A stretch of 64,000 nt of DNA from an uncultured Verrucomicrobiae bacterium. GTDB taxonomy: Bacteria > Verrucomicrobiota > Verrucomicrobiia > Chthoniobacterales > Xiphinematobacteraceae. Positions 12,865 through 63,523 of the stretch are shown piece by piece. The notes beneath the pieces were generated by a model. The model saw only the letters and a program-made list of their open reading frames with translations, was not told the DNA's origin and did not search any database. The first letter of the stretch is position 1; the number at the start of each line of letters is the position of its first letter. Where the stretch lies: the NCBI GenBank assembly GCA_963706715.1, contig CAVPNI010000002.1:352001-416000 (forward strand), in the 5' to 3' direction. The translations under genes and the position numbers were made by a program.

Positions 12865-12897
12865 CGGTTTTTTAGGACTGGCTTCTCCAGTTTCTTA
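12865..12897. repeat. Family A palindromic element, degenerate partial copy
   Basis: cggttttttaggactggcttctccagtttct parallels 39871-39905. Confidence 0.45.
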
Positions 12898-15800
12898 AAT
12901 ACAAGCGGGGAGCTGGCTATGTGGATTTCGAATGCGCGTGAGATAAGTCACCCGTGGTCGTGTATTTAAAGAATCCAGTAGAGTGTAGCCTCTCGGACTG
13001 GACCTTAAACGCGCGATCCATGTATTTGGATCGGCTTCGTTCCCAAAGACGATAGCCTCTGCTGGACAGGCTTGCTGACAAGCGGTCTGAAACGGAGGAA
13101 GAGGAAATTTTTCTGGGTCGGAGGAACCGGCTCGTACAAGCCGCGAAATTTTTGCTTCTTCAATGCGCTGAATACAGAATGTGCATTTCTCCATCACCCC
13201 ACGCATCCGAACGGTCACGTTTGGATTTTTGGAGAGTTTCATACTCTCAGCCATACCCTTGGGGGCTAAGGGACCCAATTTCAGTTGGTTTAAGGGGCGT
13301 TCGTTATAATCAAAAAAATTGAATTTCCGGACTTTCCAAGGGCAATTGTTTGAGCAAAATCGGGTACCGACGCATCGGTTATAGACCATCAAATTCAGGC
13401 CTTCTTCGTTGTGTACGGTAGCATTTACCGGGCAAACCGGCTCGCAAGGAGCATTCTCACAGTGCTGACAGGCAATCATTTGCGGGATGATTTCGGCTGT
13501 CGCAGGGTCTCCGGAAAAATAGCGGTCGATTCGAATCCACGCCATATCTCTTCCTTTACGCACTTGTTCTTTACCGACGACAGGAACGTTATTTTCCGCC
13601 TGACAAGCCACAAGACATGCATTGCAGCCGATACATGCGCTGAGATCCACCGCCATTGCCCATTGCGGGGATTGGGGAGAAGATTCTGTCTTTTTCGATC
13701 TACAAGTTTGTAGTTCAAGAAAAACGTCCTTTGCAATAGTTGAGTTTCTAAAAGAAACCGACGAAGTCGGTCCCTCCTTTGGAGAAACCTCTTCATGATT
13801 TCTTGGCAAGGAAAGTTGATAGTCGTTCAAGTTTATCTGACGGACCAAATTTTCGCCATCGATGGCATGGTTTTCCTGTGTTCGTGCAAAGGAATGTTTT
13901 TCGCCCGTACGGCGAACCAGGACACCACAACGAAAGCGCATGGAATCCGACTGGCGAAGCGGATAGGCATTGAATCCGATTGAAGGCCACTGAGCTTCCT
14001 TGGAAGAGGAGGCAGTGGAAAGGTCCCATTCAGTCGGCGCTTGGCGTCCATAGCCAAGCGCAATGGCAATGGAGTCCTCCGCATGGGATGGCACCAGAAG
14101 AGCCGCAGCCCGAACAGACACAGTCTGATAGGACGCAGTCTGGAAGGAATCGGAGGTGACACTAATTTCCAGTATGTCACCATCCTGTACTCCCAGGTGA
14201 GCAGCAGTGGCAGGTGCAAGAAGGGCAGCATTATCCCAGACTATCTTTGTAACAAAGTCAGGCGTCTCCTGAAGCCAGGAGTTTTCGGCAAAACGGCCGT
14301 CGTTAACGTTCGAACTGCGCAGGAAAACGAGCTCGGTTTCCGAAGATTTTGGTGACCGCACTTCTTGAAGTGTCCGGATCAACGCGGAGGAATTTATTTT
14401 ATCGGAAACGACCGGCCATGCGGAGTCTTTTAAAAATCCGGAGCGGAGAAATTCGGTCCACTCTTCTTCGCTTCTTTGTTCCAAGAAAGTTTTGTGGACG
14501 GCGTTGGGACTATCGGCAGAATCTTCCCCGGCGAGGACGGAAAGAACGCGAAGGGTGGACCAGCCATTCCAGAGCGGCAGGATCATGGGTTGGATGGCGG
14601 AGAGTGTCCCATCAAAGGCAAGCGCATCTCCCCAGCTCTCTAAAAAATGGGCAGCGGGAATCCTCCAGCGCGAGAGGCGTGAAGTTTCATTGGCAAACAG
14701 GCTCAGGTGACAGGTTTCAGGTATTTGCGGCAACAAAGATGAAAAGTTTAAGTCGGCCGGGGCATCATATGCGGGATTACCGCCAAATAGAAGAAGATGG
14801 CGCACCTTGCCATCATGGATCGCTCTCGCAAGGCTGGAAATATCTGCCGTTTTCTTCGTTTTCCTGCCACTATCGATCACTTCCACCGTGGAGTTCAAAT
14901 TTCCAAGCGCTCGATTCAGCGCCAGTGCAAGAGCATGAACGTGCGCAGGCTGAGAAGCACCCACCCAAACGATGGTGCGTCCCTCGTTTGCAAGCAAATC
15001 TTGGCTACACGCGGCTATCCAACGTGCGTCGGGTGATCCCGGCAGAGTCGGGCATGCCTTTAATGCGGCTGACAAATTGTCATCTGGCAACCGATCAGCC
15101 ACTGCTCGGGCTAATGCTAGTATAACACCGCCAATCTCGGACGCCTTCACTCGCAGACGGTGATCCGCCATCCCTCCTGTGAGCGACACATAACTTTCCG
15201 CAACGTAAAGACGGTTCATTGGAGAATTCCGTTGGTCCGGATTTCTGCGAGAATAAAAACCTTGAGAAAATCCAGGAGCGGTTTCCGCCGGATTCAGGAA
15301 ATCCGAATCCAAACTGACGATAATACCCGCCCGCTCAAATCGTGGAATGAGTGTCTCTCCCTCCTGTAAAGCAAGACCGGCGCCTTCGTGGTCAAGCGGT
15401 TCATAGGCCGCCCAGAGCATCCCAGGAAAATCCACTTCTAATTGTTGGCGAAGACGCTCTTGAGTGGGAGAGGTTTCCCGGGGCACCAGTATGGCAAGCC
15501 CTTCGCCTGATTTTTGATATTCTAATCGCACCCGCCGGAGAAAACTCCTAAAGTCCTCCACGCTGGTCTCTTTTCCTTCACAAGTTATCGGGCGCGCGCG
15601 CGCCGGATGGTACACTTCAGCAATTGAAGCTTGAGCGAACGCACTGGAGCCGCGTCCCGCCGCGGGGTGAAGTGGATTGCCCTCCACTTTGACCGGACGC
15701 CCATCCACTGTGGCCACCAAGAGAGGAATCGCTCCAAATGCTGATGGCATGCTCGTAGCATAATAAAGAAACTTTCCCGGCAGCGTCCACTCAACCGCAC

Positions 15801-15984
15801 GATCAAATGGGACAAGATGGGCTTCCGGACGCCGACAGCTCCCTAAGGCAAGCATCGCCGCACTAGCGCCTAAAAGTCGCACAAATTCGCGACGCCGAAG
15901 GTTCTCAAAACCAGTCGGAAATTCAGCGGGATTAGGAGCGACCCCCGAATGACATTCTTCCAAACTACGCCACGGGGTCTTCAT
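12895..15984 (-). CDS. actB: Alternative complex III subunit B (molybdopterin-oxidoreductase-like domain plus 4Fe-4S dicluster)
   Basis: WRSLEE leader, Tat-like RRREFVRL, DGRPVKVEGNPLHP, CIGCNAC, CQHCENAPC, CVGTRFCSNNCP, MEKCTFC. ATGA overlap with actA. Confidence 0.92.
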   Translation of the reverse strand: MKTPWRSLEECHSGVAPNPAEFPTGFENLRRREFVRLLGASAAMLALGSCRRPEAHLVPFDRAVEWTLPGKFLYYATSMPSAFGAIPLLVATVDGRPVKVEGNPLHPAAGRGSSAFAQASIAEVYHPARARPITCEGKETSVEDFRSFLRRVRLEYQKSGEGLAILVPRETSPTQERLRQQLEVDFPGMLWAAYEPLDHEGAGLALQEGETLIPRFERAGIIVSLDSDFLNPAETAPGFSQGFYSRRNPDQRNSPMNRLYVAESYVSLTGGMADHRLRVKASEIGGVILALARAVADRLPDDNLSAALKACPTLPGSPDARWIAACSQDLLANEGRTIVWVGASQPAHVHALALALNRALGNLNSTVEVIDSGRKTKKTADISSLARAIHDGKVRHLLLFGGNPAYDAPADLNFSSLLPQIPETCHLSLFANETSRLSRWRIPAAHFLESWGDALAFDGTLSAIQPMILPLWNGWSTLRVLSVLAGEDSADSPNAVHKTFLEQRSEEEWTEFLRSGFLKDSAWPVVSDKINSSALIRTLQEVRSPKSSETELVFLRSSNVNDGRFAENSWLQETPDFVTKIVWDNAALLAPATAAHLGVQDGDILEISVTSDSFQTASYQTVSVRAAALLVPSHAEDSIAIALGYGRQAPTEWDLSTASSSKEAQWPSIGFNAYPLRQSDSMRFRCGVLVRRTGEKHSFARTQENHAIDGENLVRQINLNDYQLSLPRNHEEVSPKEGPTSSVSFRNSTIAKDVFLELQTCRSKKTESSPQSPQWAMAVDLSACIGCNACLVACQAENNVPVVGKEQVRKGRDMAWIRIDRYFSGDPATAEIIPQMIACQHCENAPCEPVCPVNATVHNEEGLNLMVYNRCVGTRFCSNNCPWKVRKFNFFDYNERPLNQLKLGPLAPKGMAESMKLSKNPNVTVRMRGVMEKCTFCIQRIEEAKISRLVRAGSSDPEKFPLPPFQTACQQACPAEAIVFGNEADPNTWIARLRSSPRGYTLLDSLNTRPRVTYLTRIRNPHSQLPACI
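13687..13770. repeat. Family A element in frame inside actB
   Basis: Arm gtttctaaaagaaaccgacgaagtcgg (13744-13770) plus spacer similar to 44704-44730. Encodes PTSSVSFRNSTIAKDVFLELQTCRSKKT. Confidence 0.8.
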
Positions 15985-62748: not shown

Positions 62749-62866
62749 AGTTTGGGGTGAGCCTTGCAAGAGCGACGCTCTGCACCCCGTCATTTGAATT
62801 GCATCGGCAAAAAAACCAGAATGGGGGTTTGGCACGCTCCGTTCGTATCCAAAACAACAACTAATA

Positions 62867-63478
62867 ATGTTAACATCTCCATCGAAAATGATAGTGGCGG
62901 GACTGACACTCCTACTCAATCTAGGACTCTGCCTATCCAGCCAGGCTCATCAAATCGTCATCAGCGTAGCTGACCAAAAGTTGGCTCTTCTGGACAAAGG
63001 GCAGACCGTAGCCGTTTGGCCCGTGTCCACTTCCAAATACGGCGTGGGAGATCGCTTCGGAAGCTACGCCACACCCGTCGGTAATCTGCGAGTCGCTCAA
63101 AAAATTGGCGCCGGCATGCCACAAGGCACGGTTTTCAAATCACGAAGGCCCACTGGCGAAATTTTGGTTCCAAACACTCGCGGACGAGATCCCGTTGTCA
63201 CACGCATCCTCTGGTTACAGGGTACTGAGCAAAAAAACCGGCACGCCTTAGACCGATGCATCTATATTCACGGTACTGCGGAAGAATATAAAATTGGCAG
63301 ACCCGCTAGCTACGGTTGCATCCGAATGAAGTCACCTGATGTCACACGCTTATTTGAAGCTGTCGGACCGGGAACCCCGGTACTCATCACGGCAACGAGA
63401 CTCCGAAAAGAAATTCAGCAACTCTCCAAGATTGCTTGGCATCAGTTTCTTTTAGGAACCTGCAGTAGTCGCAAATAA
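62867..63478 (+). CDS. L,D-transpeptidase (YkuD family)
   Basis: Signal peptide and IYIHGT...ASYGCIRM. Confidence 0.92.
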   Translation: MLTSPSKMIVAGLTLLLNLGLCLSSQAHQIVISVADQKLALLDKGQTVAVWPVSTSKYGVGDRFGSYATPVGNLRVAQKIGAGMPQGTVFKSRRPTGEILVPNTRGRDPVVTRILWLQGTEQKNRHALDRCIYIHGTAEEYKIGRPASYGCIRMKSPDVTRLFEAVGPGTPVLITATRLRKEIQQLSKIAWHQFLLGTCSSRK

Positions 63479-63523
63479 AGTCTTTTTTCATCTGCAAGTT
63501 TCTAAAGGAAACGGCGAAGTTTG
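63432..63523. repeat. Family A element overlapping the L,D-transpeptidase stop
   Basis: cagtttcttttaggaacc...gtcttttttcatctgcaagtttctaaaggaaacggcgaagt. Confidence 0.8.

Follow-up and report, generated by a model that had tools for sequence, protein, structure and literature searches.

A dispersed DNA mini-hairpin repeat in a verrucomicrobial genome, possibly the orphan of a lost Y1 transposase

How does a palindromic repeat come to occupy hundreds of sites in a genome that holds no enzyme recognizable as its carrier? The question is raised by a stretch of 64,000 nucleotides (the window) from an uncultured Verrucomicrobiae bacterium, positions 352,001 to 416,000 of contig CAVPNI010000002.1 in assembly GCA_963706715.1, or G000:C2:352001-416000 of the 3.04 Mb, 100%-complete source genome (G000). 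An original prediction made from these letters described a dispersed palindromic element, here family A, as a probably mobile, structure-conserved C-GAA-G mini-hairpin resembling repetitive extragenic palindromes (REPs) and the hairpin-forming REP doublets known as REPINs, and could not assign it to a described family. Our analysis upholds this description of family A, which is lineage-specific and present in many copies. We give about an even chance, a probability near 0.5, to the reading that family A is an orphaned, REPIN-like, non-autonomous element, once mobilized in single-stranded form by an HUH tyrosine transposase of the Y1 type that has since been lost and was most likely a TnpA-Y1 of subclass 1.2. 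The TrpB of G000 is most similar to records from Chthoniobacterales and other Verrucomicrobiota.

A profile of the family A arm, seeded on the window copies and run genome-wide, gave 348 matches in G000 and 1 in the reversed genome, which served as the control for pattern and profile scans; family A is therefore not a product of chance. A second profile of 66 nt, covering the whole conserved unit, returned 374 matches against 0 in the reversed genome, 236 of them spanning both unit ends, and a strict arm pattern occurs 173 times against once, so that the copies anticipated elsewhere in the genome do exist. By unit-profile coverage they form ~215 clusters with a total of 22.7 kb; the surveys of gene context and of configuration described below comprise 230 and 199 clusters, respectively.

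The basic unit of family A is a one-sided 66-bp module, TTGTAG ... YCTAAARG-NNN-hairpin. On the strand that carries the GAA loop, TTGTAG is followed by an A-rich and then a T-rich middle, the YCTAAARG motif, three spacer nucleotides and a 13-nt hairpin, with conservation ending 1 base past the hairpin; the unit consists, in other words, of a conserved 52-nt body and a small, very stable terminal hairpin with a 5-bp stem. The G-T-A-G columns of the TTGTAG end are 94-98% conserved in 171 distinct full units. The ~90-bp design of arm, spacer and inverted arm that had been proposed for the family exists as a sub-form, the 35-bp spacing being found in 45 of 97 inverted arm pairs, but it is not the basic unit, as 107 of the 199 clusters are single units, with two units tail to tail in 30, a unit plus a short inverted arm in 12, and arrays or mixtures in 50.

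Conservation of the terminal hairpin as a structure was assessed in two sets, 90 distinct arms, where pairing was compared with shuffled columns, and the 171 full units, where mutual information with average product correction (APC) was used. In the arms, pairs 2 and 3 of this outer hairpin are Watson-Crick in 81 and 80 cases (after shuffling, 41.9 and 44.1 on average and at most 56 and 59), and in the units the top three APC-corrected pairs, at 0.72, 0.55 and 0.30, are exactly outer-hairpin pairs. The stems cited in the original prediction all occur as written, and its claim that the first stem varies yet stays paired holds in both sets. Perfect stems are present in 123 of the 171 units and belong to 10 types. 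Because stem type switches 55 times on a tree of the 123 bodies (at least 65 after shuffling) and different stems are found on near-identical bodies, the variation is better described as a few compensatory variants being swapped than as 123 independent events. The same switch count fits a transposase-independent selfish repeat, like the CGTC REPs or the Rickettsia palindromic elements (RPEs), that would be spread by a host or unrelated enzyme and by gene conversion and template switching at the mini-hairpin, its covariation arising from few old compensatory changes and subsequent hairpin shuffling. We consider such an origin unlikely: an imperfect palindrome adjacent to the hairpin stays uncorrected, and generic palindrome correction thus fails to explain the perfect outer stem.

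The arm had also been described as two abutting hairpins, both co-varying. Only the outer one covaries; in the 90 arms, none of the five pairs of the second is matched more often than shuffling would give, the counts being equal, its outer pair is T.G in 77 arms and its inner pair C.A in 32, and the gtttcc/ggaaac exchange offered as co-variation accounts for 3 of the 90. The second hairpin was consequently rejected as a selected structure, being without covariation in the arm and full-unit sets, and a central hairpin was rejected for lack of covariation as well. What resembled a second hairpin is a sequence signal, because its motif and the 3-nt geometry are common to family A and a sibling, family C. 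The latter combines the same YCTAAARG motif and 3-nt spacer with a C-GTCA-G tetraloop hairpin located at one end of a ~85 bp element; it has 158 profile matches in G000, 3 of them in the window, is abundant in the congener G001 too, and forms six C-A hybrid pairs with family A. That the motif-3 nt-GN(N)A geometry is kept in two sibling families with different loops suggests a protein reader and weighs against the selfish repeat. An unbiased scan for perfect 5-bp hairpins after YYCTARARG found 249, of which 233 begin at offset 3, compared with 5 of 21 when the genome was reversed. Of the 233, 221 have C-GN(N)A-G loops, which is the DNA mini-hairpin rule; among triloops, only GNA is reported to form DNA mini-hairpins (PMC13037366). 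Loop changes fall at the middle base in 10 of 11 cases with perfect stems, 21 of 27 with stems of at least 4 pairs and 12 of 20 in a profile-selected set.

In the window, all six loci that had been considered clear are present, with E 1e-7 to 1e-15 against the unit profile. The seventh, a degenerate locus at 12865, is missed by both profiles (E<10) but matches the strict arm pattern at 12878 and is a probable degenerate arm. The features are as follows.

12865..12904, plus strand: probable degenerate arm, 4/5 stem pairs, hairpin 12878-12890; strict arm pattern match, no profile match.
12895-16059, minus strand: ActB-like Fe-S oxidoreductase gene, carrying the 13677..13775 insert.
13677..13775, plus strand: family A, 99-bp in-frame insertion; full unit 13707-13770 with hairpin 13758-13770, plus an inverted inner fragment; profile matches.
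19608..19689, minus strand: family C element, E 5e-23.
39870-39890: degenerate extra arm beside the 39886..40018 pair.
39886..40018, unstranded: family A, tail-to-tail pair of full units with the hairpins on the outside at 39887-39899 and 40007-40019.
41268..41351, plus strand: family C element, E 2e-21.
44661..44753, unstranded: family A, full unit (minus strand, hairpin 44662-44674) plus short inverted arm (hairpin 44740-44752, loop AAA); 90-bp form.
44807..44865, minus strand: incomplete family C element with a family A copy on either side, E 6e-9.
44930..44984, plus strand: family A, single unit without the inner TTGTAG end, upstream of rpe; profile E 1.4e-13.
52584-53495, minus strand: membrane-protein gene, carrying the 52985..53185 insert.
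52985..53185, unstranded: family A, 201-bp in-frame mosaic of arms and units.
63442..63523, unstranded: family A, degenerate unit plus inverted arm.

Within the window the 90-bp form is confined to 44661-44753, 53012-53100 and 63442-63523, and the loop departs from GAA at 44740 (AAA) and at 53013 (TAC, which is GTA on the other strand).

Empty orthologous sites, whose comparison the original prediction had proposed, were found across species in diverged alleles; the genus set has five genomes (G000 and its congeners G001, G002, G003 and G004). The ActB-like gene has 33 extra codons at a site that is empty in G001 and G002. The membrane-protein gene has 67 extra codons that are missing in G001, while G002 bears a different insert of ~22 codons at the same place, and both ends of the G000 insert lie ~1 nt or less from a hairpin foot (52984 and 53186). 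The right unit of 39886..40018 provides the 3' end and stop of trpB, and 63442..63523 those of a YkuD-domain gene; neither copy is present in the orthologous positions of G001 and G002. These comparisons of sequence indicate that family A insertions are lineage-specific. In-frame insertion is also a property of RPEs, and as such agrees with the selfish repeat.

Most copies avoid gene interiors. Of the 230 clusters, 121 fall between genes, 90 extend over the end of one, 15 are contained in a gene close to its end and 4 are deep inside open reading frames (ORFs), so that 226 are intergenic or at gene ends, mostly beside housekeeping genes. Such a distribution would suit a cis signal selected by the host (an RNA terminator or stabiliser, or a nucleoid or primase site), with mobility secondary, and mini-hairpins are indeed part of signals for primase and for N4 polymerase (PMC13037366). 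We consider a host signal improbable, given that orientation relative to co-directional genes is unbiased (27 vs 31), that sites differ between species and family A is absent from G001, G003 and G004, and that Rfam gave no relevant match. The last result, together with resolved insertion sequence (IS) ends that do not resemble the arms, also leaves family A without a described family, as originally stated.

Of the congeners, G002 has family A at lower copy, in G001 family C alone occurs, and both families are absent from G003 and G004. The family A pattern was found in 0 of 400 other genomes sampled from the phylum (a sample without G002), does not rise above background elsewhere in the order, G002 excepted, and gave 0 hits in viral contigs and no match among plasmids and phages. 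A sister species carries family A at 11 of 17 metagenome loci, with flanks 80-89% identical to G000 and the element often in different spacers or configurations; the other 6 matches (L097, L101, L104, L106-L108), single arms with flanks lacking homology to G000, were dropped as chance. Nearest-neighbour identity among distant units has a median of 87%, and since for 30 of 208 units a copy at a distant site is at least 98% identical and the sister species shows many different insertions, the spread of family A was fairly recent. Recent near-identical copies in a genome with no Y1 gene also accord with a selfish repeat. The commonest 24-mer, at 25 of 183, has a low share, which may be likened to that in REPIN populations that decay without their REP-associated tyrosine transposase (RAYT) (bioRxiv 2021.07.10.451892).

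Could a resident DDE transposon have generated these copies? Inverted pairs with outermost hairpins do resemble elements bounded by terminal inverted repeats (TIRs), and family A might be a MITE, a miniature transposable element with inverted repeats, derived from long TIRs, in a genome that is rich in IS elements and has a real IS630 MITE. We consider this origin improbable. Ends were resolved for about 6 of the 17 IS families tried in G000, the rest giving no clean ends, and none of those resolved resembles the arms. Most family A copies are single-ended, and in contrast to TIRs they show compensatory variation in their terminal bases. The distance from hairpin to junction is 0-5 nt, and no target duplication is evident, including at the ActB and membrane-gene sites, whose empty alleles differ from G000 by 20-35%; at one paralogous site both ends share a 4-mer. 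The statement that the window has no cognate transposase needs qualification, as IS3-type, IS66 and two ISL3 transposases are present, but it stands insofar as the resolved IS ends are unlike the arms. As separate observations, MITEs at window 21391-21554 and 48785-49041 have ends matching the resident IS630, some with internal GNA hairpins, and across the genome at least 6 IS630-MITE copies are joined to family A, the fusion point being the TA of its TGTAG.

The searches for a carrier enzyme in G000 found none. RAYT, the partner that had been suggested, is absent in its classical form from the whole genome and the genus (PF01797 and NF047646 over cut-off in 0/5 genomes), as is the IS91/ISCR Y2 transposase (PF04986, 0/5). 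Searches of G000 for Y1_Tnp, DUF559, MobA_MobL and a small GIY-YIG gene gave no candidate, the sole GIY-YIG match being a 535-aa ORF that is presumably UvrC. TrwC and a weak Relaxase match do occur, 15-57 kb from any family A copy. The 44 arm-flanked ORFs, read by eye, are housekeeping, IS701 or MITE ORFs, with no RAYT among them. A custom Y1 profile run over six frames found only two copies of a short IS200 remnant, away from arms and comprising the first 31 codons of TnpA (G000:C3:21750-21900 and C4:381420-381570); because of these remnants, the lineage seems to have met a Y1 element before. The lack of a mobiliser in the Y1, RAYT, IS91, DUF559, small GIY-YIG and MobA families favours the selfish repeat, and CGTC repeats likewise have no dedicated transposase according to PMC3733652.

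Outside the genus, the picture in the order is different. Y1 genes are present in 32 of 36 non-congeneric order genomes sampled, and relatives of one such protein in 108 of 301 order genomes and 0 of 5 in the genus. In the 30 best-matching of the loci returned for this protein (L154-L183), 28 proteins have Y---Q--HH, the motif of TnpA-Y1 subclass 1.2 (PMC6006769), and at 25 loci C-GN(N)A-G hairpins lie no more than 250 bp from the gene. Hairpin density is 7.1/kb within 250 bp of Y1 genes but falls to 0.33/kb at greater distance, and trpB loci have 0.11/kb. Dispersed copies of the flanking hairpin number 275 in one genome (G648) and 206 in another (G687), largely in inverted groups. The occurrence of the same hairpin grammar beside Y1 genes of the order is a further point against the selfish repeat. 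Subclass 1.2 genes with flanking GNA/GNNA mini-hairpin units may constitute a REPtron-like system, for which we found no description in the literature. Searches for mini-hairpin, REP and transposase did not find the three together (most subscription papers and the repeat lists in the supplements of PMC6006769 and PMC3733652 being outside their scope), the genus name with palindrome yielded only unrelated work, and bioRxiv 2021.07.10.451892 ties only RAYT groups 2 and 3 to REPINs.

Among known systems, family A behaves most like a REP/REPIN family. With the GTAG REP/REPIN-RAYT system (PMC3733652, PMC8266576, bioRxiv 2021.07.10.451892) it has in common hundreds of mostly extragenic copies, which stand alone or form inverted dimers or arrays, sub-families whose stems differ by compensatory changes, a conserved GTAG, turnover that is specific to lineages and some intragenic copies. 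The paired stem of GTAG REPs, however, has at least 7 bp and starts 0-2 nt after GTAG (PMC6006769), whereas the family A GTAG is ~43 nt from the covarying hairpin in a 66-nt unit, and the genus has no RAYT. A classical GTAG REP was rejected, the DNA after GTAG being without excess complementarity or covariation and no RAYT being arm-flanked. Subclass 1.2 repeats (Quentin et al. 2018, PMC6006769), as judged from the loci analysed here, are alike in their 5-bp variable stems, C-GNA-G and C-GNNA-G loops, T(G/A)TAG motif within the units, inverted and tandem arrangement and high copy number in some genomes. They differ in having two hairpins around TAG that point toward the gene, in the absence of detected sequence homology and in a gene that the family A genus does not have; the subclass is described as generally lacking typical IS200 end structures (PMC6006769). 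To CGTC REPs and RPEs family A is similar as an orphan palindromic repeat in a probably host-associated lineage with in-frame insertions (99 bp, 201 bp) in conserved genes, but its profile has no terminal CGTC tag at either end and no conserved tail, and only 4/230 clusters are deep in genes.

Assuming that family A did descend from a Y1 system, we infer the enzyme, its cut site and the direction of events as follows, the link to HUH enzymes being indirect. The GAA strand would fold when single-stranded, and the enzyme would recognize the YCTAAARG motif from its sequence but the hairpin from its shape; the substrate of known REP enzymes is folded single-stranded DNA, on which they act strand-specifically (PMC8266576). 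It would cut near the hairpin foot and join copies to new sites, often onto existing copies, since hairpins swap relative to bodies and 18 of 122 perfect hairpins have a partial stutter of the hairpin after them. Once the gene was lost, the population would decay, reshuffled by slippage, recombination and IS630-MITE insertion.

Several observations weigh against descent from a lost subclass 1.2 enzyme. No cognate gene is present in the complete genome or the four congeners despite the fairly recent spread. Of 5 genomes tested for the subclass 1.2 hairpin, 3 do not have it in high copy, the numbers being 5, 5 and 13. The unit profile gives no significant sequence match to the 30 subclass 1.2 loci (best E 2.3), and polarity differs: 96 of 104 flanking hairpins face the Y1 gene and are followed by TAG at 9-10 nt, but in family A pairs the direction is outward and GTAG precedes the hairpin by ~43 nt. 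Mismatches on the GAA strand number 31 A.C vs 11 G.T in one set, contrary to the prediction from selection on that strand, and 14 vs 11, without bias, in the profile-selected set; the two sets conflict. Finally, no GC skew or replichore bias is evident for family A copies.

Other repeats and mobile elements accompany the families. Heptamer tandem repeats (L099, L100, L102; G000:C1 near 208760) occupy intergenic hot spots of families A-C, sometimes in place of the terminal hairpin. The window also contains a group II intron at 1162-3100 (reverse transcriptase 1283-2740; Rfam matches) adjoining the IS3-type, IS66 and ISL3 transposase genes at 3287-6894, RHS-repeat genes at 25600-36300 with repeated C-terminal cassettes, one broken by an ISL3 copy (30124-31507), and intragenic tandem repeats of 141 bp in 4 copies (50369-51073) and of 18 bp (35665-35836).

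Taken alone, family A is restricted to one small clade and has no demonstrated function. More tentatively than for family A itself, we propose that families A and C are orphaned passengers of a third, undescribed REP-type system, in which subclass 1.2 enzymes would read GNA/GNNA mini-hairpins by shape, and which would be widespread in the order at hundreds of copies per genome, could outlive its enzyme and might add peptide loops to conserved proteins. In family A, nature provides a clear example of a structure that is peculiar to DNA, the GN(N)A mini-hairpin, being selected or preferentially retained; the existence of two sibling families makes the fixed and variable parts of the signal readable, and the uncharacterised TnpA-Y1 subclass 1.2 gains candidate substrates.

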